A stretch of 64,000 nt of DNA from Thermoanaerobaculia bacterium (GCA_035996815.1 DASYJF010000114.1:70786-134785), one strand, 5' to 3'. Counted from the first letter of the stretch, positions 6,055 to 52,270 are shown. The notes: generated from the letters alone by a model not told the origin. Translations and numbers: made by a program.

Positions 6055-6600
6055 TCAAAACTGGGTCGTGGGTACCGGCGACGGCGCCGGGACGTGCGGC
6101 GGATCCGCTACCGTCCGGTGCTTCCGTCCGAAGCGGTTTGCTTTCCGCATCACTGCGACATGCGGAAGCAGAGCCGCGTGAGCCGGTGAGCGCACCAGAC
6201 TCTTGCTCACAGCGTACGTGAGCAACGCCGCTTCGCCGAGACGGTTGCGCCGCGTCAGGTTCGCCGAGGTGACGCCGCGCAGCATGGACCGCAGCTCGTC
6301 TTCCACCTTCGACCACCGTGCGGTCGTCTCCGCCTCCTGCTGCAGCTCCTCGGGCGTTCTTCCGACCACGCTCAGCACCACCGGAGATGCGCCGATGGCG
6401 TTGATTGCGGCTTGCGCAAACTCCGGATGCACATTGGCGGCGGGTTGGATCGCCCTCGCATCCGCCGCCGGCAGCTGCACGAATTCCGGGATCTGCTGGC
6501 GCAGCACGCGGAGCTGCTCCACGATCGATTCCGGCGTCATTACCGGGTCCCCTGCCGCCGCGGCGGCGTTCGTTTCACTAACTGCATTTTCGTTAGACAT
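6055..6600 (-). CDS. hypothetical protein, paralogue A of a duplicated unknown family (see 9600..10076)
   Basis: Strong AGGAAAGGAG ribosome-binding site before MSNENAV. The protein aligns along its length with the 9600..10076 product (shared ...RWSxVEDELxSMLRGVxxANLxRR... block and basic C-terminus). Confidence 0.55.
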   Translation of the reverse strand: MSNENAVSETNAAAAAGDPVMTPESIVEQLRVLRQQIPEFVQLPAADARAIQPAANVHPEFAQAAINAIGASPVVLSVVGRTPEELQQEAETTARWSKVEDELRSMLRGVTSANLTRRNRLGEAALLTYAVSKSLVRSPAHAALLPHVAVMRKANRFGRKHRTVADPPHVPAPSPVPTTQF

Positions 6601-7014: not shown

Positions 7015-7209
7015 TCAATGGCGAAAGATGGCATTCGCTACGCCAACGAACGCCACAGCCGCAGCAAGAAGAGCTAAGCCCGCCGCCTCGGGATGCCCCG
7101 TCCAACTTGAGGAAGCCAAAGCAAGAGCGGCAATACCCGCAGCCAAGGCGCCAAGGACCGCGCCACCTCCAACAGTTCTCGCTCTCGATACGTTATCCGT
7201 CGAGCTCAT
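7015..7209 (-). CDS. possible small (64 aa) two-helix membrane protein
   Basis: MSSTDNV...GGGAVLGALAAGIAALALA...LALLAAAVAFVGVA is hydrophobic and Gly/Ala-rich. There is no homology support. Confidence 0.25.
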   Translation of the reverse strand: MSSTDNVSRARTVGGGAVLGALAAGIAALALASSSWTGHPEAAGLALLAAAVAFVGVANAIFRH

Positions 7210-7330
7210 GATGCTTCCGCCCCACGAACATCCTACGCCTGTTGAACCCGTGCCGCTTTGCACTCGTTATCTGGGCAAGTTTCGCCTCATTCCCGGCGCG
7301 CGTTGCCTCGCGAATGGCGACGCGTGGTCT

Positions 7331-7504
7331 CGATATCAGGAACGTTCGCCACGACATTGAAAAAAATCAGTTCGAGACTGAGAACGCGTGCCTCGATCAT
7401 GACGCCGTTGTCGCTTCGTATTGACGTGCGTTCATGATGGAACGGGCCGTTTTCACTGTCGAAGTGATTTTTTTTCAATGTCGTGGCGAACGTTCCTGAT
7501 ATCG
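7331..7504. repeat. MITE-like element: perfect 36-bp terminal inverted repeats (CGATATCAGGAACGTTCGCCACGACATTGAAAAAAA / reverse complement) flanking a 102-bp core
   Basis: 7331-7366 is the exact reverse complement of 7469-7504. The inner ends are A7 and T7 runs. Confidence 0.8.
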
Positions 7505-7595
7505 AGCTGCACGTTTCTGATAGGGAAGTGAACGTTTCTGATATCGAGCTGCACGCTTCTGATATGGAAGCGAACGTTCCCTATGTTGAAGCTCC
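7488..7595. repeat. about 2.5 tandem copies of a 42-bp unit (GAACGTTYCTGATATCGAGCTGCACGYTTCTGATAKGGAAGY) reusing the inverted-repeat-arm motif
   Basis: Direct repeats begin inside the right inverted repeat of the MITE-like element. Each unit contains an internal 21-bp sub-repeat and a GATATC palindrome. Confidence 0.75.
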
Positions 7596-7961: not shown

Positions 7962-8052
7962 GTGATGGCGGGCGGTGGATGCTACACGGCGCTCAACGCC
8001 TCGGTCAATGTCCTCATTCCGTGCGGTCGCGGACGGAGCCGTCCGCCGTTTC

Positions 8053-8412
8053 ATGCGACAATCGCCGGGCGAGGATGAGTCTGTGTTACCCGAGGTTTTT
8101 GAGTGTCCGCAGTGCCAGCGGCAGTTTGTTTTTGAGCTCGTCGAGAGCGCCGACGACCGCTCCATCTACTGCCCGCAGTGCAAGCGCTACCTCGGCGAGA
8201 AGGACCTCAACTTCATCCTCATTTCCGAGATCGAGGAGCTGACCGAGCGCCTCCGCTTCGAGCGCGAACGCCTCGAAAAGGACGAAGCCCTCTACTCGAT
8301 GTCCGACTGCGATGCGGAGCTGAAACTGTATGGCACCGAGGTCCACACCGTCGTCAGCATTCTTCGCAAGGCCGTGGCGGAGCTGGAAGCGCTGAAAGAA
8401 CAGTATCGCTAG
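8053..8412 (+). CDS. zinc-ribbon protein (CPQC...CPQC) with C-terminal coiled coil
   Basis: Two CxxC pairs 24 residues apart followed by a charged helical tail. Start is uncertain (ATG 8053 or GTG 8083). Confidence 0.5.
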   Translation: MRQSPGEDESVLPEVFECPQCQRQFVFELVESADDRSIYCPQCKRYLGEKDLNFILISEIEELTERLRFERERLEKDEALYSMSDCDAELKLYGTEVHTVVSILRKAVAELEALKEQYR

Positions 8413-8427: not shown

Positions 8428-9603
8428 TCACCACGCAAGCACCAAGTGCTTTGCCAGGTAGTACCAGAGGCTGGCGGACGTGATCAGGATGAACCACCTT
8501 GCGGGCGCGGATGACGGGATGATCAGCGCGGCGCTGACCAGGAACGCGTCGGCGAAGATGCGCAGGAAGCCGTAGTCCTCAATCCAGATCGTGTGCGGCA
8601 GGATGGAAAAGAGGGCCAGGTATCCGACCCAGGCCAGCCGCCACTCCAGCGGCGCGCGCGTCCGCCGCCACACCAGCACGATGGCGATGACGACGCCGGC
8701 CAGGAACAGACTCTCGAGGAAGTAGAGACGCTCTTGGTGATCGCGGCGCATGGACGCGGCGGCCAGGAACCGCGCGTACTCGACGAAGGGCAACGCGCGA
8801 TCGGGTGCTCCGGCCCGGAGCGGCGTGACGCCCCAACACGCGGCCAGGACGATTTGCCAGAGCGCGTAGGCCGCCATCGGAAGCGCGAACATGACGGCGT
8901 CGATGCGGCGCTCGCGGCGCAGAAGTCGGTCGGCCAGCCAGACGGCGGCCAGTGCTACGGCCAGCAGCAGCGTCGTTTCCCGCGTCAGCACCGCAGCCGT
9001 GAGCAGCAGCGCGGCCGTCACGTTGCGGCGCGAGGCGGCGGCCCAGATCGCGCCCATCGCGAACGCGGCGGCGGCGATCTCGGACAGATCGCGCGAAAAC
9101 GTCAGCACGAATCCGGGATAGAGCGGCACGATCACGCCCCACATCGCGTGCAATCCGAACTTCTTCGCGAATGCTCCGCCGAAAGCGGCCATCGCCGCGG
9201 CAGCGAGGATGTTGACGATCACGAGTAGCCACGGAATCCATTTCACGCGGCCCAGCGACAACATCCAGACGATGAACGGATAACCGATCCGTTGCTGCCG
9301 GTACGGAGGGTTATCAATCCGGATCCCGTGCGCCGCCTGCACGCGCGTGAACGGATTGATAGCCAGTCGGTAGAACCAGATTCCGTCGTAGCCGCCGATC
9401 TTCGGGATCACGGTCAGCCCGGGCGGCACTTTCGAGGCATCGACGTTTTGTCCGCCGGCGATGACGAAGAGGGAAACGTCGCCTCCTCGGGTTCTAAGCA
9501 GCAGAACGAAAAAGGCGATGTAGCAGATCGCGATCACGATCGCCGGGGTGAGCGGCGAACCGGGATTCGATCGATCTCGAAGAATCGGGCGCAGGCTCCT
9601 CAC
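8428..9603 (-). CDS. polytopic inner-membrane protein (about 10-12 TM), possibly a GT-C-like glycopolymer/cell-surface biogenesis protein
   Basis: 391-aa ORF with many hydrophobic helices. GTG start overlaps the upstream stop (GTGA). Function is inferred from topology only. Confidence 0.7.
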   Translation of the reverse strand: MRSLRPILRDRSNPGSPLTPAIVIAICYIAFFVLLLRTRGGDVSLFVIAGGQNVDASKVPPGLTVIPKIGGYDGIWFYRLAINPFTRVQAAHGIRIDNPPYRQQRIGYPFIVWMLSLGRVKWIPWLLVIVNILAAAAMAAFGGAFAKKFGLHAMWGVIVPLYPGFVLTFSRDLSEIAAAAFAMGAIWAAASRRNVTAALLLTAAVLTRETTLLLAVALAAVWLADRLLRRERRIDAVMFALPMAAYALWQIVLAACWGVTPLRAGAPDRALPFVEYARFLAAASMRRDHQERLYFLESLFLAGVVIAIVLVWRRTRAPLEWRLAWVGYLALFSILPHTIWIEDYGFLRIFADAFLVSAALIIPSSAPARWFILITSASLWYYLAKHLVLAW

Positions 9604-10076
9604 TTCGTCTTGCCGGCGGCCTTCCTGCCCTTGCCGCGGATGTGGTTTACCCGCTTCATCTCCGCGAGGTGCGGGAGCAGGTGTTGAAACTCCTTCTTCC
9701 GGACCAGTTGGCGAACGACGGCGTAGATCTGCAGAACGGCGGTGCCGACGGCGTGACGGCGCTTGAGGTTTGCAGCGCTCACGCCGCGAAGCATCGACAT
9801 TAGTTCATCTTCGACGGCGCTCCAACGCTGGGCATCGTCCCGTTGTTGCCAGAAGTCTTCGACCGGCGCGCCGATGACGCTCGGCATGCGCGGATCCGCG
9901 CCGCCGGTAATGAGAGCGGCTTCCACGAATTCGGAATTGAGATGTGCTACGCGCGTCATCGAACGCGTCTGGCGAATGGTCAACTGCTGGAACTTCGGGA
10001 TGCGCGCCCGCAGCCGGCGAAGCTCCTCCACCAGCTCCGCGGGTTCAATCGGAGTGACTTCGGGATCATCGCTCAT
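9600..10076 (-). CDS. hypothetical protein, paralogue B of the duplicated unknown family; translationally coupled to the downstream membrane protein
   Basis: Aligns with the 6055..6600 product. Its stop overlaps the start of the 8428..9603 gene by 4 bp. Confidence 0.6.
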   Translation of the reverse strand: MSDDPEVTPIEPAELVEELRRLRARIPKFQQLTIRQTRSMTRVAHLNSEFVEAALITGGADPRMPSVIGAPVEDFWQQRDDAQRWSAVEDELMSMLRGVSAANLKRRHAVGTAVLQIYAVVRQLVRKKEFQHLLPHLAEMKRVNHIRGKGRKAAGKTK

Positions 10077-10189
10077 GACTCATGGAAGCGCGGCCCGGCC
10101 ACGAAGTCAAGAAAGGCGTCCTCGAAATGAGCTTGCGAGCGTACAGCAATGACAAAAGACACCCCCGACAAGGCGATTCGCTCACGGTG

Positions 10190-10531
10190 TTGATGTCGCC
10201 GGCATCAACGCCATGTCCGCCGCTGCACATTTTGATGTTCTGGAACATCAATCGATAGAGCCAGACCTCCTCTGTTGATGCGGGCTACATCAACAGACCA
10301 GGACGCGGTTGACCATTTTGATGGATGCCTGCATCAACATAGGCAGGGGGTCTTCAGTACTTGATGTCGGCGACTATTCGTTTGCTGTCGAAGGCATCAA
10401 CGCAGGCCTCGCGTGATCACCAATTTGATGTCATGGACATCAACGGGCGCAGTCTTCACGTGTCTTTTGATGTCGCAAACATCAAATGGAGTGAAGTCTG
10501 CCAAAGTGCTGCGCACGAAGGATGTTTGATG
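10190..10531. promoter_or_regulatory. array of about 7.5 dyad-symmetric sites TTGATG-N7/8-CATCAA at about 43-bp periodicity in a divergent intergenic region
   Basis: Dyads at 10190-10208, 10232-10251, 10275-10293, 10318-10337, 10361-10400 (long spacer), 10425-10443 and 10467-10485, plus a half site at 10526. Centre-to-centre spacing is 42-43 bp, or 53 bp around the long-spacer site. Confidence 0.7.
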
Positions 10532-10720
10532 CCCGCCGGAACCGCGGCACCTTTCGCGAAGCTTTGGAGTGCGGTGGCGATCGAGCCACCGCTTTGGGAG
10601 GGAGGGGGAAGCGTTCCCGTCGCGCGTACGCAAGCATCACATGCTGCGTATCGTCACCATTCCACCGCCCTCCCAAAGCGGCAGCTATGCCGCGCGCACT
10701 CCAAAGTGCTGCGCACGAAA
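10499..10720. repeat. interspersed structured repeat family E (CCAAAGTGCTGCGCACGAA ... GCTTTGGAGTGCGGTGGCGATCGAGCCACCGCTTTGGGAGGG), about 1.5 copies
   Basis: Near-identical to the reverse complement of 59805-59945. Contains internal inverted repeats. Confidence 0.75.
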
Positions 10721-10824
10721 ATTGTCTCATTCGCAGCTTCGCTCCTGACACGCAGACATCCCAATCCTCCTCGATCGCAATCCGCCGTAACTTTTCTCCT
10801 CCTCGGCGGTTTAATGGGCGATTC

Positions 10825-11358
10825 ATGGATCGCGCAATCGAAGAACGTGAGCGGCTGCTGATCGAGGCCGCACAGCAGGACCCGAAGCGGTTCGCGGAGT
10901 TGTACGAGGAGAACTTCGGGCGGGTGTGGGCGTTCGTGATCAGGCGGGTAGGTGAACGCTCGGTTGCGCAGGACATTACGTCCGAGGTGTTTCATCAGGC
11001 GCTGGCGAACGTGGGGCGATTCGAATGGCGCGGGCTGCCGTTCGCGGCGTGGCTGTATCGGATTGCGGCGAATGCGATCGCCGATCACTTTGCGAAATCG
11101 GCGCGCGAGCAGAGTACCGAGGCCGAGGTAACCGTACCGCCGCATGAGATCGAAGACATTGAGCGCCGCGCGTCGCTGTATCGCTTCGTCGATCGACTTC
11201 CGGCCGAGCAACGGCGCGTGCTGGTCATGCGGTTCGCCGAGGAACGAAGCATCCGCGAAATCGCATCGGTCATCGGACGGAGCGAAGGCGCGGTCAAACA
11301 ACTTCAATGGAGAGGCCTGCAGACGTTGCGGGCCCGAATGGGTACGAATCATGGCTGA
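10825..11358 (+). CDS. ECF-family RNA polymerase sigma factor (sigma-70 regions 2 and 4)
   Basis: ERERLLIEAAQQDP..FAELYEENFGRVWAFV (region 2) and a C-terminal EQRRVLVMRF..ERSIREIASVIGRSEGAVKQL helix-turn-helix (region 4). Confidence 0.9.
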   Translation: MDRAIEERERLLIEAAQQDPKRFAELYEENFGRVWAFVIRRVGERSVAQDITSEVFHQALANVGRFEWRGLPFAAWLYRIAANAIADHFAKSAREQSTEAEVTVPPHEIEDIERRASLYRFVDRLPAEQRRVLVMRFAEERSIREIASVIGRSEGAVKQLQWRGLQTLRARMGTNHG

Positions 11359-18796: not shown

Positions 18797-19038
18797 AGTG
18801 GACTAGTGGATCAGTAGATTAGTGGATTAGTAGGTCGGTGATCGGGCGATTGGTAGACGCTGAATCCGAGAAGAAGTCACGGGTAATACCCAATGGCCTT
18901 GCCTTAATTAGTTTTCGATGCTCGCGGCTGGAGCGCTGGCGTCTCGCCGGCTGGCTCGCCTGCGCAAACGCTTACGTTAAGGCCATTGCGGGTAATACCG
19001 AAGCTCCTGATCTACTAATCCACTAATCTACGAATCCA
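18797..19038. repeat. composite nested inverted-repeat structure: outer arms of repeat family D, inner 25-bp inverted repeats, central half copy of repeat A
   Basis: 18797-18840 is complementary to 19011-19038. 18881-18908 is approximately complementary to 18977-19000. 18931-18965 matches the repeat-A arm. Confidence 0.7.
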
Positions 19039-19865
19039 CTGAGTTTCTCGAGGATTTCGGGCTCGATGATCATCTCCGCGGCGATGGCGATGATGTCACG
19101 GTCATCAATCTTCACCGCGTCTTTTTCAGTCGTCACGATGGCCTCGGCGCCGGCGGTTGCGGCCGATGCTTTGATCGACGCGATGTCGGCGGCGGTGTAG
19201 CGATGATGGTCGCGAAAGCTTCTTGTTCCGATCACGTTCAGCCCGTTCGCGCGCAACGACGCGAAGAACTGTTCGTTGTCAGCGAGTCCGGCGAAGGCGA
19301 AGATGCGGCGTCCCGTCAATTCCTCCGGTACGACGAGTCGCAGGCGGCGTTGAATGACGAAATCGGCGTCCGCGAGCGCGGAGCGGCCTTCGCGCATGAT
19401 GCCGCCGCGCGTATCGATGACGACGTCGATGTCGCGGGCGAGCTGCAGGTGCTGGAAGCCGTCGTCGAGGATGAATACGTCGCACTCATTCACGTTTAAA
19501 AACTGAACAGCATTGTGATAACGCTTTGATCCGACAATTACGTCTATATTTTTCAGCTTGCTTTTCAACAGCACCGGTTCGTCGCCGAACTTCGCGGCAT
19601 CGAGCGACGTGACCAGGCCCGAAGCGTTGCCGGCGCGTCCGTAACCGCGCGTCAGCACGGCTACACGGAAGCCGCGCTTTTCGAGATAGCGGGCGATGGT
19701 GATGACCGCAGGCGTCTTCCCGGCGCCGCCGGCAGCGAGGTTGCCGACCGAGATCACCGGCCGCGGGAGGCGCTTGCTCTTCAAGATGCCGCGACGGTAC
19801 AGCGCGCGGCGCAGCCGGTTGACGCCGCGCCAGAGGAACTCGATCGGTTTGAGGAGGAGCGTCAC
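19023..19865 (-). CDS. lpxK: tetraacyldisaccharide 4'-kinase
   Basis: P-loop GNLAAGGAGKTP and LpxK-like sequence. GTG start overlaps the waaA stop (GTGA). Confidence 0.85.
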   Translation of the reverse strand: MTLLLKPIEFLWRGVNRLRRALYRRGILKSKRLPRPVISVGNLAAGGAGKTPAVITIARYLEKRGFRVAVLTRGYGRAGNASGLVTSLDAAKFGDEPVLLKSKLKNIDVIVGSKRYHNAVQFLNVNECDVFILDDGFQHLQLARDIDVVIDTRGGIMREGRSALADADFVIQRRLRLVVPEELTGRRIFAFAGLADNEQFFASLRANGLNVIGTRSFRDHHRYTAADIASIKASAATAGAEAIVTTEKDAVKIDDRDIIAIAAEMIIEPEILEKLSGFVD

Positions 19866-41995: not shown

Positions 41996-42106
41996 TGGGA
42001 GTGGGGAGTTGGGGGTGGGGAGTGGGAGCAGACCCCGGCGTGAGGCGCGTGCGCTGTTGATTTTGCCTCTGCTGCCACACCCCACACCCAACTCCCCATA
42101 CCCCGG
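41996..42106. repeat. G-tract/C-tract hairpin repeat family C (GGGAGTGGGGAGTTGGGGGTGGGGAGTGGGAG ... CCACACCCCACACCCAACTCCCCATACCCC)
   Basis: Imperfect inverted repeat with at least 6 consecutive G3-5 tracts. A second copy is at 48714-48800. Confidence 0.8.
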
Positions 42107-44095: not shown

Positions 44096-45211
44096 ATGAA
44101 CGTGAACGAACAGAAGATGAAGTGGGTCGGGGTTCTGACTTGGATCATCGTCGCGATCCCGAGCGTGCTCTGGCAGGCGCAGTACCGCTCGCTGGTCGGG
44201 CCGCGCGCGGCGCTGTTGTTCACCGCCTTCATCGTTTTCATCATCGCCTTCATTTTTGGTACGCGGCCGGGTTGCGGCACCCCGACGAAGATTTCGATGC
44301 TCGTCGTCGAAACGCTTGCGGCGTACGTCTGCATCTCGATGCAGCCCACCGGCTTTCAACCCGTACTGCTCGTCATCATCGCCGCGCAGCTCGGCGCCTA
44401 CCGGCCGCGCGTCGCCATCATCGCCATCGCGATCAACTGCATCTCCCTCGGCATCATCGTTTCGGCCACCGACGGTTCGCCGGTCATCTACGCGCTCGTC
44501 TACTTTGCGTTTTCACTCTTCTCGCTTTTCTCGATGCACGTCGCGCATTCGGAGATGGAGGCGCGGAAGTCGCTGGCCGAGGCCAATGCGGAGCTGCGCA
44601 TGACCACTGAGCTGCTCGAGATCAGCAGCCGTACCTCGGAACGCCTCCGCATCGCCCGCGATCTCCACGATCTCCTCGGACATCACCTCACGGCGCTGAG
44701 CCTCAATCTCGAAGTGGCCGGCCATCTCGCCTCGGGCGACGCGAAGGAGTCGATCGAGAAGAGCAAGTCGATTGCGAAGCACCTCCTCGCCGACGTTCGC
44801 GACGTCGTCAGCCGTCTTCGCAATGACGAACCGGTCGATCTGACGTCGTCGCTCGAATCATTGCGCGATGTGATCGTCGCGCCGTCGCTCCATCTCGACT
44901 TTCCGGGCGAGCTCGCCGTCGCCGATGCGAACATCGCGGAAGTGGCGCTGCGAACGGTGCAGGAAATCGTGACGAACGCGGTCCGCCACTCCGGGGCCCG
45001 CAATCTCTGGCTGAACCTCGGCACGGCCGATCACACTCTGTCGATCGATGCCCGCGACGACGGCGTCGGCGCCGACAACATCAGCTTCGGCAACGGCCTC
45101 CTCGGCCTTCGCGAGCGCGTGCAGCAGGCGCGCGGAACGTTCGAGGTGACGTCGATGCGCGGCCGCGGCTTCTCGCTCCACGTGACGCTTCCGCTCGGAG
45201 CCGCCGCGTGA
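44096..45211 (+). CDS. sensor histidine kinase, NarL-type (HisKA_3 + HATPase_c), polytopic N-terminal sensor
   Basis: H-box RIARDLHDLLGHHLTAL and ATPase N/G boxes (NAVRHSGA...GNGLLGLRERV). Confidence 0.85.
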   Translation: MNVNEQKMKWVGVLTWIIVAIPSVLWQAQYRSLVGPRAALLFTAFIVFIIAFIFGTRPGCGTPTKISMLVVETLAAYVCISMQPTGFQPVLLVIIAAQLGAYRPRVAIIAIAINCISLGIIVSATDGSPVIYALVYFAFSLFSLFSMHVAHSEMEARKSLAEANAELRMTTELLEISSRTSERLRIARDLHDLLGHHLTALSLNLEVAGHLASGDAKESIEKSKSIAKHLLADVRDVVSRLRNDEPVDLTSSLESLRDVIVAPSLHLDFPGELAVADANIAEVALRTVQEIVTNAVRHSGARNLWLNLGTADHTLSIDARDDGVGADNISFGNGLLGLRERVQQARGTFEVTSMRGRGFSLHVTLPLGAAA

Positions 45212-45849
45212 TCCGCATCTGCATCGTCGAAGATCAGACCATCGTCCGCCAGGGTCTGCGCAGCCTGCTCGCGCTCGTGCCCGACATCGAAGTCGTCGCC
45301 GAGGCCAGTGACGGCGAGGAAGCGGTCGAGGTGATCGAGCGCGAGAAGCCGGACGTCGTCCTGCTCGACCTGCGCATGCCGAAACTCGACGGCGTCGGCG
45401 TCCTGCGCACGCTGCGCGAACGCAACGCCGCGCGCCCGACGCTGATCCTGACGACGTTCGACGACGACGCGATTTTGTTCGAAGCCGTCCGCGCTGGCGC
45501 GAAAGGCTGGTTGCTGAAGGACGTTTCGCTCGAACGCCTCGCCGGCGCAATCCGCACGCTCGCCGACGGAGGCACCTGCATCGAACCGGTCATCACCGAA
45601 CGGATCATGCGCGCGCTGGAAAAGAGCGATTCGTCATTCGAATCCGCCGACCTCCCCGAGCCGCTCACCGACCGCGAACGAACCATCCTCCGCCTCCTCG
45701 CCGGCGGTTACAGCAATCACGAAATAGGAGAGTTGCTGAACATCACCGAGGGAACGGTTAAGAATCACATCTCGAATCTGCTGTCGAAGCTGGGCGTGCG
45801 CGATCGAACGCGCGCGGTGTTGCGGGCGATTGATCTAGGTGTGATTTAG
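45208..45849 (+). CDS. response regulator, NarL/LuxR family
   Basis: Receiver D54 context (VVLLDLRMP). C-terminal LuxR helix-turn-helix (LTDRERTILRLLAGGYSNHEIGELLNITEGTVKNHI). Confidence 0.9.
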   Translation: MIRICIVEDQTIVRQGLRSLLALVPDIEVVAEASDGEEAVEVIEREKPDVVLLDLRMPKLDGVGVLRTLRERNAARPTLILTTFDDDAILFEAVRAGAKGWLLKDVSLERLAGAIRTLADGGTCIEPVITERIMRALEKSDSSFESADLPEPLTDRERTILRLLAGGYSNHEIGELLNITEGTVKNHISNLLSKLGVRDRTRAVLRAIDLGVI

Positions 45850-46052: not shown

Positions 46053-46575
46053 GGACGTCACGTCCCACGGTGTGTGACGTCGCGCCCCGCGGTGCGGGCG
46101 TCGCGTCACACAGTGTGTTACGTCGCGCCCCGCGGTGCGGGCGTCGCGTCACACAGTGTGTTACGTCGCGCCCCGCGGTGCGGGCGTCGCGTCACACAGT
46201 GTGTTACGTCGCGTCCCGCGGTGCGGGCGTCGAGTCACACAGTGTGTTACGTCGCGTCCCGCGGTGCGGGCGTCGCGTCCCACGGTGTGTTACGTCGCGT
46301 CCCGCGGTGCGGGCGTCGAGTCACACAGTGTGTTACGTCGCGTCCGGCGGTGCGGGCGTCGCGTCCCACGGTGTGTTACGTCGCGTCCCGCGGTGCGGGC
46401 GTCGAGTCACACAGTGTGTTACGTCGCGTCCCGCGGTGCGGGCGTCGAGTCACACAGTGTGTTACGTCGCGTCCCGCGGTGCGGACGTCGGGTCCCCACG
46501 GTGTGTGACGTCGCTTCCCGCGGTGCGGAGGTCGCGTCCCACGGTGTGTGACGTCGCGTCCCGCGGTGCGGGCGC
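46053..46575. repeat. 43-bp minisatellite, about 12 tandem units (GTGTGTTACGTCGCGCCCCGCGGTGCGGGCGTCGCGTCACACA and variants), each unit hairpin-capable
   Basis: Exact 43-nt period counted. Unit variants differ at 2-4 positions. No unique spacers. Confidence 0.9.
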
Positions 46576-46694: not shown

Positions 46695-47690
46695 CTACTG
46701 AAGCCGGAAATTCACGGTCACCGTGTAGTACACATCGATCGGCTCGCCCCGGACCGTGGCGGGGCGGAAGTGCCACTGGCTGACGGCATCGCGAGCGGCG
46801 TCGCCGAGGCCGTAGGGGAGATCGCGGATGACTTCGACGTTGTCGATGGTCCCATCGCGGCGGACGATCCCGCGGACGACGACAGGCCCCTGGATCCCGG
46901 CGCGGCGCGCCATCATCGGATAGCGCGGTACGACGCGATCGGTCTCCTCCGGCTGCGTTCCGCCAGCCGGCACCGCGGAGTAAACGCCGCCGTTATCCGT
47001 CGCTACATGCACCGGGGCTGGCGCGGTTTCGGTGGGCGGCTGCGGCTCGCTTTCCGGCGGCGAGGCGGCGGATGTCGTCGCAGCGGTGTCGGTCGCAGTC
47101 GTATCGGTATGGACTTCGACCTGACGCGTTCCGGCGGAACTGACATCGATCGCATCAACATCGGCGTAGGCGATCTGGTTGTCGTGAGCGAGCGCGTAGA
47201 AATCGTGGTCGCGCGTGTAGACCTTCACCTGCGTCTCCGCGGACAGCTCGCCGATGATCGGATAGAAGATGCCCGGGCCGGCGTAGAGCGGCGTGCGCGC
47301 GCTGACGATGGCGTTGAGCGCCGGCAGCTTGCGGATCGTTTCGTAGCGCGCCAGGCGGCGCTCGCGCTCGGATGTCCGCTCCAGCGAGTTGCGCTCCGCC
47401 CAGCCGGTCATGCCGTCGTCGTCCTGCACGCGAACCCATGCGCCGCGGTCTTCGAGCACGATGAGCTTCTCGCCGTTGGTCGCGGTTGCGACGACGGGCG
47501 AATTCGCCGTCGGCTGCGTGCGGAGCCGGAGACGTAGCGCAAGCACCGACAGGTTTTCCGATGTGGGCGGCGGCGCGTCGTCGTGTTTTCCGCTGCGCAG
47601 AATCAGCAGCGCCAGCAGCGCGAAAAAAATCACGCCGAGGATGATGACGACGGTCAGGCCGCGCGTGTGCCGGGTTTGTGCGTCAGGCAT
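46695..47690 (-). CDS. TonB-family protein (N-terminal TM, SH3-like middle domain, Pro-rich linker, TonB-C domain)
   Basis: N-terminal transmembrane helix. C-terminal VVPRYP..ARRAGIQGPVVVRGIVRRDGTIDNVEVI..P.GL is the TonB-C signature. Confidence 0.8.
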   Translation of the reverse strand: MPDAQTRHTRGLTVVIILGVIFFALLALLILRSGKHDDAPPPTSENLSVLALRLRLRTQPTANSPVVATATNGEKLIVLEDRGAWVRVQDDDGMTGWAERNSLERTSERERRLARYETIRKLPALNAIVSARTPLYAGPGIFYPIIGELSAETQVKVYTRDHDFYALAHDNQIAYADVDAIDVSSAGTRQVEVHTDTTATDTAATTSAASPPESEPQPPTETAPAPVHVATDNGGVYSAVPAGGTQPEETDRVVPRYPMMARRAGIQGPVVVRGIVRRDGTIDNVEVIRDLPYGLGDAARDAVSQWHFRPATVRGEPIDVYYTVTVNFRLQ

Positions 47691-47781
47691 GTGGTAGTGG
47701 ATTACTGGACGAGTAGATTAGTGGATTAGGAAATCGCTTCGTGCCTCTTCTAATCTACTAATCCACTGATCACGAATCTAC
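47691..47781. repeat. repeat family D hairpin (GTGGTAGTGGATTACTGGACGAGTAGATTAGTGGATTAGG ... CTAATCTACTAATCCACTGATCACGAATCTAC)
   Basis: Inverted repeat between the argF stop and the TonB start. Same family as 18797-19038 and 60915-60995. Confidence 0.75.
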
Positions 47782-48698
47782 TTCTTCATCAACACGTACA
47801 TGATCGCCTTCTGCACGTGCAGCCGGTTTTCGGCTTCGTCGTAGATGACTGATTGCGGCGAGTCGATGACCTCGCCCGCCACTTCCTCGCCGCGATGTGC
47901 GGGGAGGCAGTGCATGAAGATGGCGTCCTTCTTCGCGAGCGACATCACCCGCGAATCGACCATCCATCCTTCGAAGTCTTTCTGTCGTTTCTGCGCTTCC
48001 GCTTCCTGACCCATCGACGCCCAGACGTCCGTCTCGACGACGTCGGCGTCGCGCACCGCTTCTTCGATGGACGTGGTGATGGTGACTTTCGTGCCGGCGT
48101 AGTCGGCGTCGCCCTGCGATTGCGCGATGATCATCGGATCGGGCGCGTAACTCGGCGGTGTGGCGATGGAGATGTGCATCCCCACTTTCGACGCACCGAA
48201 CATCAGCGAGTGGGCCATGTTGTTGCCGTCGCCGATGTAGGCGAGCTTGCGGCCTTTGAGATCGCCGAGGCGCTCCCAGGCGGTGAAGTAATCGGTCATG
48301 GCCTGCATCGGATGCGAGAGATCGGTCAGTCCGTTGATGACCGGCACGCTCGAATACTCAGCCAGCTCCGTGACCGTCTTGTGCGCGAAGGTGCGGGCCA
48401 TGATGCCGTCGACGTAGCGGGATAGGACTTTCGCACTGTCGTAAATCGGCTCGCCGCGTCCGATCTGAATGTCGCGCGACGAAAGAAAAAGCGCGTGGCC
48501 GCCCATCTGGAACATCCCTACTTCGAAGGAGACGCGCGTGCGGGTCGACGATTTCTCGAAGATCATCGCCAGCGTCTTTCCCTTCAGCGCGTCGCGGTAC
48601 TTCTCGCGATTCGCCTTCATGTCGCGCGCGATCTCGAAGATCTCGCGAACCTCGTCAGCGGAGTAGTCGTGAATTTCGATGAAGTCTTTATGCCTCAT
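47778..48698 (-). CDS. argF: ornithine carbamoyltransferase
   Basis: STRTR carbamoyl-phosphate motif and HCLP motif. OTCase length. Confidence 0.85.
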   Translation of the reverse strand: MRHKDFIEIHDYSADEVREIFEIARDMKANREKYRDALKGKTLAMIFEKSSTRTRVSFEVGMFQMGGHALFLSSRDIQIGRGEPIYDSAKVLSRYVDGIMARTFAHKTVTELAEYSSVPVINGLTDLSHPMQAMTDYFTAWERLGDLKGRKLAYIGDGNNMAHSLMFGASKVGMHISIATPPSYAPDPMIIAQSQGDADYAGTKVTITTSIEEAVRDADVVETDVWASMGQEAEAQKRQKDFEGWMVDSRVMSLAKKDAIFMHCLPAHRGEEVAGEVIDSPQSVIYDEAENRLHVQKAIMYVLMKK

Positions 48699-48713: not shown

Positions 48714-48800
48714 ATGGGAGTGGGAGTAGGGAGTGGGAGACCCGAGGTGGTTTGCTGTTGTTGCCTATCTCCCACTCCCCATCCCCCACGCCCCACTCCC
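48714..48800. repeat. G-tract/C-tract hairpin repeat family C copy
   Basis: GGGAGTGGGAGTAGGGAGTGGGAGA ... TCTCCCACTCCCCATCCCCCACGCCCCACTCCC. Confidence 0.8.
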
Positions 48801-52047: not shown

Positions 52048-52058
52048 GGCGCAATGAT

Positions 52059-52270
52059 AGTGGTTAGTGGCCAGTGGTTAGTGGCCAGTGGTCAGGAAGG
52101 CAATGAGTGGTCAACTGGCGACGGTGAGGTAGGAATGAGCGGTTAGTCGCCGGTGAAGGGCGCGATCATCATCACTGACCACTGACCACTGACCACTGAC
52201 CACTGACCACTGACCACTGACCACTGACCACTGGCCACTGACCACTGGCCACTAACCACTGGCCACTAAC
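52059..52270. repeat. long imperfect inverted repeat whose right arm is an octamer microsatellite (CCACTGAC) of about 8 units plus GGCCACTAACCACT variants
   Basis: Left arm 52059-52097 (GTGGTTAGTGGCCAGTGG...) is complementary to the right arm 52173-52270. It lies in the divergent region between the 51358..52047 gene and ykgJ. Confidence 0.85.

Follow-up and report, generated by a model that had tools for sequence, protein, structure and literature searches.

Why does a run of dyad-symmetric sites lie in front of an extracytoplasmic function (ECF) sigma gene, and which gene does it serve? The question arises in a 64,000-nucleotide stretch of DNA from Thermoanaerobaculia bacterium (GCA_035996815.1 DASYJF010000114.1:70786-134785; this whole stretch is called the window below), in which a 749-bp gap separates the start of the minus-strand gene p158 (10076) from an ECF sigma gene (10825-11358) and houses an array of TTGATG-N7/8-CATCAA dyads. 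A previous description made from the DNA alone (the sequence-only reading) had placed these flanking genes correctly and had taken the array to control a sigma/anti-sigma operon. The array is linked to genes of the p158 family, rather than to the sigma gene, and its dyads are very probably protein-binding sites on duplex DNA, for which the p158 protein is the best candidate ligand.

Dyad sites in the intergenic gap

An exact-pattern scan located six perfect dyads in the gap (Table 1), compared with a chance expectation of 0.01 from 100 dinucleotide shuffles, and no further TTGATG-N7/8-CATCAA copy was present outside the array across the 64-kb window. Seven full dyads with identical arms had been proposed; six are indeed perfect, and the seventh (dyad 5) carries one mismatch. 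Its left arm is a perfect TTGATG in L007, L008, L010 and L012, and since the first three are contigs of near-identical strains, dyad 5 can be regarded as a genuine site that was point-mutated in the window. The supposed variant dyad with a 28-bp centre (10361-10400) resolves into a half site and the separate dyad 5; the half site is decaying in L010 (TCGATG) and was lost from L012 by a 21-bp deletion. Another half site, at 10526, had been counted as a member of the array and lies outside it, within a ~200-bp element resembling a miniature inverted-repeat transposable element (MITE).

Dyad units in the window measure 19-20 bp and linkers 22-24 bp, and the successive centre-to-centre distances (42.5, 42.5, 43.5, 63.5, 43 and 42 bp) are multiples of ~21.5 bp. 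Because each ~21.5-bp unit corresponds to two helical turns, every site lies on one face of the DNA. The helical phasing that the sequence-only reading deduced from a 42-43-bp spacing is therefore upheld, but there is no strict 43-bp period.

Conservation and phasing of the array

Related arrays were collected by a pattern scan of a metagenome collection. Nine of the 57 stretches returned were accepted as true arrays, having 8-11 dyads apiece with variable centres, a GC content of 0.58-0.67 and spacings in multiples of ~21.5 bp; the other 48, tandem repeats that are low in GC or coding and have identical centres or different periods, were rejected as unrelated. TTGATG arrays comprise 6-12 sites over 250-400 bp.

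Selection acts on the arms. When the intergenic region of the window was aligned with that of its 85% orthologue L012, identity was 97.4% in the arms, 81% in the centres and 62.6% in the linkers (arms versus linkers, Fisher P = 1e-9), so that the array is kept in relatives and, as had been suggested, conservation is confined to the arms while the linkers are free. Among 75 dyads pooled from 9 independent arrays the 12 arm positions were essentially invariant, centres and linkers varied (N7 centres in 30/75, N8 in 45/75), and the dyad flanks extend the consensus weakly, to cgTTGATG...CATCAAcg. Lineages also agree in their phasing: the 66 distances between dyads fit n x 21.5 +/- 0.3 bp, where n is 1 in 19 cases, 2 in 38, 3 in 8 and 4 in one. 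Insertions and deletions inside the array between the window and L012 were of +/-1 bp or exactly 21/22 bp only, whereas the flanking spacer DNA has other sizes, and strain L010 has one 42-bp unit fewer than the window. The linkers are common to the strains and drift by point mutation, and proteins only ~50% identical still carry arrays with conserved arms.

These patterns bear on the possibility that the array is a neutral minisatellite, or a selfish repeat of the MITE or repetitive extragenic palindrome (REP) kind, with no sequence-specific function. Tandem and inverted repeats do abound in these genomes, and the strains differ in copy number. Concerted evolution would, however, homogenise whole units, beyond the 12 arm bases, and the arms persist where linkers have fallen to 63% identity and proteins to about 50%. 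The array is also confined to one locus per 64 kb, and a two-dyad pattern scan of ~185,000 species-representative genomes, a collection in which neither the source genome nor its lineage is included, gave only three matches, all unrelated: apparently coding tandem duplications in Chamaesiphon and in a Bacteroidia metagenome-assembled genome (MAG), and a 23-bp hairpin triplet in Massilia. With nothing related in those genomes, the array is probably no generic REP element, and we regard a neutral repeat as extremely improbable. The Massilia triplet (Massilia sp. PDC64, L002 5897-5961) consists of three tandem TTGATG-N7-CATCAA hairpins with a 23-bp period right after a stop codon, and looks like a REP or terminator cluster, unrelated to the array, whose arm match is coincidental.

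REP elements, bacterial interspersed mosaic elements (BIMEs) and clustered regularly interspaced short palindromic repeats (CRISPR) have in common with the array that short palindromic repeats are clustered in intergenic DNA. The array in the window occupies one locus in the 64 kb, its unit is too short for such repeats, and it has no gene for a REP-associated tyrosine transposase. Unlike CRISPR, it has no fully conserved 23-47-bp repeats and no unique 26-72-bp spacers, only 6+6 conserved arm bases with spacers that are shared between strains, and no Cas family appears among the Pfam annotations of genes within +/-10 kb. Arm constraint, phasing kept across lineages and the absence of further copies in the 64 kb and of relatives in the species-representative genomes thus bear out the earlier view that the array has the signature of protein-binding sites and not of a transposed repeat or CRISPR. 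The segment is probably not coding either. Metagenome gene callers place open reading frames (ORFs) of 58 and 165 aa over the array and the MITE-like element (L004 9258-9434 and 9540-10037, equivalent to window 10082-10258 and 10364-10861); they have no Pfam match and, because they are not conserved in L007 or L012, are probably spurious.

Hairpins would be another way to use such sites, whether as stem-loops of an RNA leader or small RNA, as extruded or single-stranded DNA, or as sites of a hairpin-binding enzyme. A 6-bp stem with a 7-8-nt loop is possible in each unit, a variable loop length fits hairpins better than a rigid dimer, and the array region folds slightly better than shuffles (z = -2.2). 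Against this, no covariation was detected beside the arms or inside the centres (inner pairs, P about 0.4), and the left-arm variants TCGATG, TAGATG and TGGATG are uncompensated, the partner base being A in 75/75 dyads. The stems are short and AT-rich, nothing about RNA would call for a spacing locked at ~21.5 bp, the predicted -35 elements are downstream of the arrays, and Rfam has no match on the array. A hairpin function is accordingly judged quite improbable.

Linkage to p158-family genes

The dyad array recurs 50-120 bp in front of p158 homologues with 85%, 55% and ~50% identity, most of which have no sigma gene in the vicinity; in eight lineages overall, an array precedes a p158-family gene by 50-180 bp. 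Six dyads, spaced 42 or 63 bp apart, make up the array of the 85% orthologue (L012), and seven that of the 55% homologue (L017). Six-frame translations of the array stretches were profile-searched for p158-family genes, which placed one directly downstream of the array in L058 and in L044/L046; in L019 a 12-dyad array is flanked by two divergent p158-like genes. Three of the six TTGATG-array lineages found by DNA pattern alone (L019, L044/L046 and L058) therefore have the array directly upstream of a p158-family gene. Conversely, with homologue lineages sampled by protein and the window excluded, four of nine (L012, L017, L076 and L078) have a ~21-bp-phased array directly upstream, and in ~190 kb of related DNA only ~3 such arrays are not next to a p158 gene. 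A further array, in L027, is on a contig cut by the contig end. The motif, whose restriction to this locus the sequence-only reading had proposed to test, thus belongs to a Thermoanaerobaculia family of arrays. We found no account in the published literature of the motif, nor of tandem repeats in Thermoanaerobaculia.

The distribution speaks against the array being mainly a multi-operator region of an ECF sigma/anti-sigma operon, as had been supposed. Within one close clade (window, L007 and L012; the window clade) the array does occupy a divergent region shared with the sigma gene, and the distal dyad of L012 is only ~108 bp from the sigma ATG. Outside it, no sigma gene adjoins the arrays of L017, L058, L044, L019 or L061, the first four of which stand upstream of p158 homologues that lack one. 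In the window a ~200-bp MITE-like insertion between array and sigma gene is tolerated, and the sigma gene retains a conserved element of its own within ~45 nt of its ATG. A role centred on the sigma operon is very improbable. That element, GTAAC...TTTAAT, is conserved in the window, L007 and L012 and could serve as a promoter of ECF type, with a leader that would be very short.

Alternatively, the array could be a real scaffold bound by some other trans-acting factor, such as a global regulator or a nucleoid-associated protein, with p158 genes as frequent targets or neighbours. This would suit the orphan arrays that lie in convergent intergenic regions far from p158 genes, the other 21/43-bp arrays in these genomes that are not beside p158 genes, the lack of a known DNA-binding fold in p158, and the zinc-ribbon genes found beside the array or p158 in L058, L044 and L014. 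However, no other gene recurs beside arrays, the zinc-ribbon protein (a PF13453-like type) is absent from L017, L019, L061, L027 and the window clade, and the repeat sequence shifts with distant p158 homologues, which a single global factor does not predict. We consider another factor unlikely. In L058 (913-1335) and L044 (994-1413) the PF13453-like protein is encoded immediately upstream of the array, and in L014 (3041-3379) 2.6 kb away; its co-occurrence with arrays is inconsistent, for which reason it was rejected as the array binder. A 145-aa zinc-ribbon protein unrelated to it (window 7975-8412) follows the membrane-protein gene p391 in the window clade. A helix-turn-helix (HTH) binder had been envisaged, with MerR, SufR-like or NarL-type regulators as candidates; nothing points to such a protein or to any of the three, and p158 has no recognisable HTH.

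The p158 protein and its putative promoter

An exhaustive profile search gave 557 clusters of the p158 family at 50% identity, and every named member is a 'hypothetical protein' from a Thermoanaerobaculia MAG. Neither p158, nor its longer members, nor the full set of 75 aligned members matched Pfam, NCBIfam or the sequences of the Protein Data Bank (PDB), and no consistent Pfam signal emerged. The structure was modelled with AlphaFold2 from an alignment of 75 sequences, which yielded an all-alpha model with a predicted local distance difference test score (pLDDT) of 93.2; a 10-sequence alignment had given a pLDDT of only 56. The helices span residues 12-25, 34-44, 48-60, 64-68, 72-124 (a 53-residue helix) and 128-148. 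The family has a median isoelectric point of 9.7, conserved Arg20, Arg23, Arg84, Trp85, Arg106, Arg107 and Arg126, and a Lys/Arg-rich tail.

Helix 34-44 has the highest conservation of all helices in the TTGATG clade (0.88) and the lowest family-wide (0.39). It reads (I/V)RQxxSMxRVA in proteins with TTGATG arrays, TLDAKSIRPAA with GTCGCG arrays and RSERQLLRRRA with GGAACAC arrays, and offers a lead, not proof, towards a specificity determinant.

Upstream of p158, the motif TTGAC(T/A)-N17/18-TTCCAT-N5/6-ATG is conserved in the window, L012, L058 and L044, and would be the p158 promoter; its -10 element ends 5 nt before the p158 ATG, which implies a leaderless mRNA. A generic sigma-70 promoter scan of the gap called no promoter. 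The p158-p391 pair is conserved in L007, L008 and L012, and p391, whose best assignment falls just short of a curated cut-off (148.4 bits against 150 for the NCBIfam cell-surface glycopolymer formation family AZOBR_p60025), is probably co-transcribed with p158. In the lineages with arrays, the array ends 35-80 bp upstream of, or abuts, a -35-like TTGAC(A/T) of the p158-family gene and never overlaps it. In four lineages the proximal dyad is centred ~45, ~45, ~65.5 and ~89.5 bp from the -35 element, so that phase is only loosely kept, with too few data to use.

Table 1. Features of the p158 locus in the window (positions counted from the first nucleotide of the window)
Feature	Position	Strand	Description
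p391	8428..9603	-	Polytopic membrane protein; overlaps p158 stop codon
p158	9600..10076	-	158 aa, basic, all-helical, unnamed family; candidate array-binding protein
Putative sigma-70-type p158 promoter	10082..10110	-	-35 TTGACT (10105-10110), 17-nt spacer, -10 TTCCAT (10082-10087)
Dyad 1 (p158-proximal)	10190..10208		TTGATG-tcgccgg-CATCAA (N7); exact match; same centre in 85% orthologue L012
Dyad 2	10232..10251		TTGATG-ttctggaa-CATCAA (N8); exact match; N7 centre in L012 counterpart
Dyad 3	10275..10293		TTGATG-cgggcta-CATCAA (N7); exact match; unit missing from L012 through a 22-bp deletion
Dyad 4	10318..10337		TTGATG-gatgcctg-CATCAA (N8); exact match
In-phase half site or remnant	10361..10374		TTGATGTCGGCGAC; 43 bp past dyad 4, 21 bp ahead of dyad 5
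Dyad 5	10382..10400		TTGCTG-tcgaagg-CATCAA; single arm mismatch in window strain
Dyad 6	10425..10443		TTGATG-tcatgga-CATCAA (N7); exact match
Dyad 7 (distal)	10467..10485		TTGATG-tcgcaaa-CATCAA (N7); exact match; one 42-bp unit deleted here in strain L010
MITE-like hairpin element (~200 bp)	10501..10720		Bounded by 19-bp direct repeat CCAAAGTGCTGCGCACGAA at 10501 and 10701

A model of autoregulation and its difficulties

We slightly favour a full reading in which the array presents same-face sites for a p158-family protein upstream of a leaderless-type promoter and the protein, binding cooperatively, autoregulates its own operon. One p158 unit, presumably a dimer, would occupy each dyad on double-stranded DNA, and neighbours on the same face would touch, giving a cooperative filament or a wrapped nucleoprotein complex. 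Placed just upstream of the -35 element, such a complex would most likely provide dosage-sensitive autoregulation of the p158(-p391) operon. Array length changes as units of 21/22 or 42/43 bp are added or lost, and the arrays would first expand by unit duplication, as the nearly perfect tandem repeats of L027, L078 and L019 illustrate, and then age until the contact bases alone are kept, as in the window. The identity of the binder, its oligomerisation and the transcriptional output are all points that we infer.

Several observations weigh against this model. The match between protein and repeat is imperfect and the linkage is not obligatory. Orphan TTGATG arrays in L029/L037/L061 lie between convergent genes (the 3' end of yidD and that of either a vapBC pair or an IS4-type transposase gene) with no p158 gene within ~3 kb, and the array of L033 likewise has no p158 gene. 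Homologues with no array include P0006 (82% identity, L014), P0012, P0082, P0205 and the window's own p158 paralogue (6103-6600), and the two p158-like proteins that flank the TTGATG-type array of L019 are very divergent (23% identity). The p158 model has no significant fold match in the PDB or BFVD, no DNA-binding domain can be recognised in the protein, and fold searches returned no ribbon-helix-helix, HTH or winged-helix structure; we infer its binding to the dyads from linkage only. Variation between 7 and 8 bp in the centres is unusual for a rigid dimer, and the arrays are upstream of the promoter and not over it. Orphan arrays and array-less paralogues together suggest that some array-protein pairs act in trans.

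Comparison with known systems

The iterated sites directly upstream of a small-protein gene recall plasmid partition loci of types Ib, II and III. In R1 parC/ParR and pBtoxis tubC/TubR, iterated sites precede the gene of their own small, cooperative binder and the complex doubles as the operon operator (PMC2241845, PMC6009700), and the F-plasmid sopC comprises 12 direct 43-bp repeats, each with an inverted repeat bound by a SopB dimer (PMC3177203). The DNA-binding motif of the ParB protein of pCXC100 is likewise undetectable by sequence (PMC3074162). The p158 arrays resemble these centromeres in having many short iterated sites directly upstream of a small-protein gene. Further plasmid centromere arrays with centromere-binding proteins are TP228 parH/ParG and the pSM19035 omega heptads. 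The p158 operon differs from such systems in that it has no partner nucleoside triphosphatase (NTPase), its downstream gene encodes a polytopic membrane protein, and its context is chromosomal; the window sites are 19-20-bp dyads with non-conserved linkers, as opposed to contiguous iterons, and p158 has no ribbon-helix-helix or winged-HTH fold match. A 43-bp dyad register is common to sopC and the window array, but sopC conserves the whole 43-bp unit with a 16-bp inverted repeat, while the window array conserves the arms only and has a 21.5-bp quantum; SopB is a ParB-type HTH protein with a SopA partner, and the p158 locus has no ParA/ParB.

Theta-plasmid iterons (RepA, pi, TrfA) are spaced by two turns on one DNA face beside the autoregulated gene of their binder (PMC4980987), and the 21.5-bp phasing of the p158 arrays matches their ~22 bp. 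Iterons are, in contrast to the TTGATG dyads, direct repeats bound by winged-helix Rep monomers and accompanied by DnaA boxes and an AT-rich unwinding element.

These parallels raise the question of whether the array serves an integrated or former mobile replicon as a centromere-like or iteron element, with p158 as a centromere-binding or initiator-like protein and with partition or replication, in place of gene control, as the function. In addition to the layout and the iteron-like phasing, toxin-antitoxin modules and insertion sequence elements are found near several arrays, and a tRNA-Gln gene lies 2 kb from the array of the window. Within +/-10 kb, however, there is no gene for a ParA, ParM or TubZ NTPase or for a Rep protein; no DnaA box occurs within 15 kb, no GC-skew switch is seen, and no AT-rich unwinding element is present, the minimum GC content over 60-bp windows being 0.47. 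A replication origin was rejected on these grounds. Plasmid and phage readings were also rejected, as p158 and the array were unmatched in 72,556 plasmids and 50,697 phage genomes, and IMG/VR gave an unrelated giant-virus repeat only. The neighbourhood is that of a chromosome, with KdtA, LpxK, a lipid A acyltransferase and a heptosyltransferase (lipopolysaccharide-core genes) within 10 kb. We assign the replicon explanation a small probability.

Cooperative multi-operators are a further parallel. Lambda CI at OR/OL, polymerising Fur/DtxR and MetJ at met-box arrays use 2-5 sites that overlap the promoter. Helically phased dyad operators that could give cooperative occupancy and a steep dose response are the common feature; the p158 arrays differ in having 6-12 sites over 250-400 bp, wholly upstream of the -35 element, and in the unknown protein family. 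Like the operators of autoregulated transcription factors, the arrays lie upstream of the p158 gene's own putative promoter. Specific binding of the arrays by p158 is a candidate role that the linkage, the basic isoelectric point of 9.7 and a helix varying with array type support indirectly. The array with p158 belongs to none of the known families compared, although its architecture resembles that of plasmid centromere/operator arrays.

Other repeats with a ~21-bp period

Two more distant homologues, both sampled blind, have different repeats in the same position. P0043 (34% identity, L076) has ~9 21-bp units of GTCGCG-N4-CGCGAC plus an A-rich linker upstream, abutting a TTGCGC-N18-TATATA element, and in front of P0221 (35% identity, L078) the 21-bp repeat GGAACACAGTGCGTCACGGCC runs for 14.6 units as far as TTGACA-N17-TAGCTT. 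The TTGATG dyad thus accompanies the p158 clade of >=50% identity and other repeats accompany ~34-35% homologues, with the 21-bp period common to all three. P0205 (L080), 84% identical to P0221, has the same leader with a single GTGCGTC proto-site only; set beside the P0221 array, this indicates that arrays are gained and lost quickly. A segment of ~260 nt from the putative promoter to the start of the p158 homologue is highly conserved between L078 (3700-4000) and L080 (3750-4000) though the regions upstream differ, and could be a structured leader or a small ORF.

The p158 paralogue of the window (6103-6600, minus strand) is 44% identical to p158 by tblastn and is called as 181 aa in the metagenome. 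No dyad array was found in the ~880 bp upstream of it, a region that includes a predicted 64-aa membrane ORF (7018-7209). About 900 bp upstream of the paralogue lies an array of ACGTTYCTGATATCGAGCTGC with a 21/42-bp period (7486-7580, also 7326-7345, and 7354-7372 with 7465-7485), which is accompanied by a partial copy in inverted orientation and flanked by an inverted repeat; it recurs in L008 (5670-5762) in another neighbourhood, beside DarT/Macro and an IS1-type transposase.

A 43-bp unit is repeated 12 times in tandem (93% match) at window 46056-46574, flanked by the 3' ends of two genes, one for a NarL-type response regulator (45208-45849) and the other a TonB/SH3 gene (46695-47690). A short palindrome follows CGTCGCGTC in both of the ~21.5-bp halves that make up each unit. 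With its GTCGCG core the repeat resembles the L076 array, and the window paralogue has the helix 34-44 motif of the L076 homologue; a trans pairing of this repeat with the paralogue is possible but speculative. Elsewhere, L037 has 18 copies of the 21-bp repeat CTCCCGGAGGTCGTTAACAGC (2076-2450) where a Spy/CpxP-like gene and hutU converge, so that the ~21-bp period also recurs in arrays that do not adjoin p158 genes.

The window has, in addition, an unusual class of intergenic repeats (18797-19040, 41997-42104, 47695-47782, 48715-48800 and 52058-52267), in which tandem heptamers or octamers are each followed by a reverse-complement block. Examples are AGTGGATT/ATCCACTA, GGGAGTG/CCACACC and CACTGAC x 13.6, and these blocks would form long imperfect hairpins.

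Neighbouring genes and the MITE-like element

The sigma gene overlaps the start of a gene for a 335-aa protein with two vicinal oxygen chelate (VOC)/glyoxalase domains (to 12358), at the place where an anti-sigma factor would be expected, and an M3 peptidase gene also lies downstream. In the window the MITE-like element separates the array from the sigma gene, having inserted there without disturbing the array. L007 has no copy of it and L008 at least two, the second of which reads TTTGACG at the bases equivalent to 10526; its weak Rfam matches to plant microRNA precursor families reflect the long hairpin only. Proteins identical to those of the window were found on soil-metagenome contigs, labelled in one source as a Thermoanaerobaculia (Acidobacteriota) MAG.

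Implications

The findings suggest that the array and p158 form a system undescribed so far. A broader and more tentative proposal, which we regard as possible but doubtful, is that the p158 family, with a new all-helical fold, is a class of sequence-specific DNA-binding proteins that has gone unrecognised and that would polymerise on rapidly evolving arrays spaced by two helical turns. Its paralogues would be matched to different repeats (TTGATG dyads, GTCGCG dyads and GGAACACAGTGCGTCAC units), some orphan arrays would be served in trans, and the whole would be a lineage-specific scaffold system for gene dosage control, silencing or centromere-like chromosome organisation.

If p158 does bind the arrays, it would provide a DNA-binding fold that is new, the one part of the system that would be categorically so, together with a readable recognition code in which three repeat types are paired with three protein clades. 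The 21.5-bp quantisation would make the arrays a natural model for the evolution of same-face cooperative filaments, and the hypothesis can be tested in vitro with synthetic genes and DNA, with no culturing needed. For a poorly studied and largely uncultured class of Acidobacteriota, the reading, if true, would correct gene calls that run across such arrays and would give a function to ~550 clusters of 'hypothetical' proteins.

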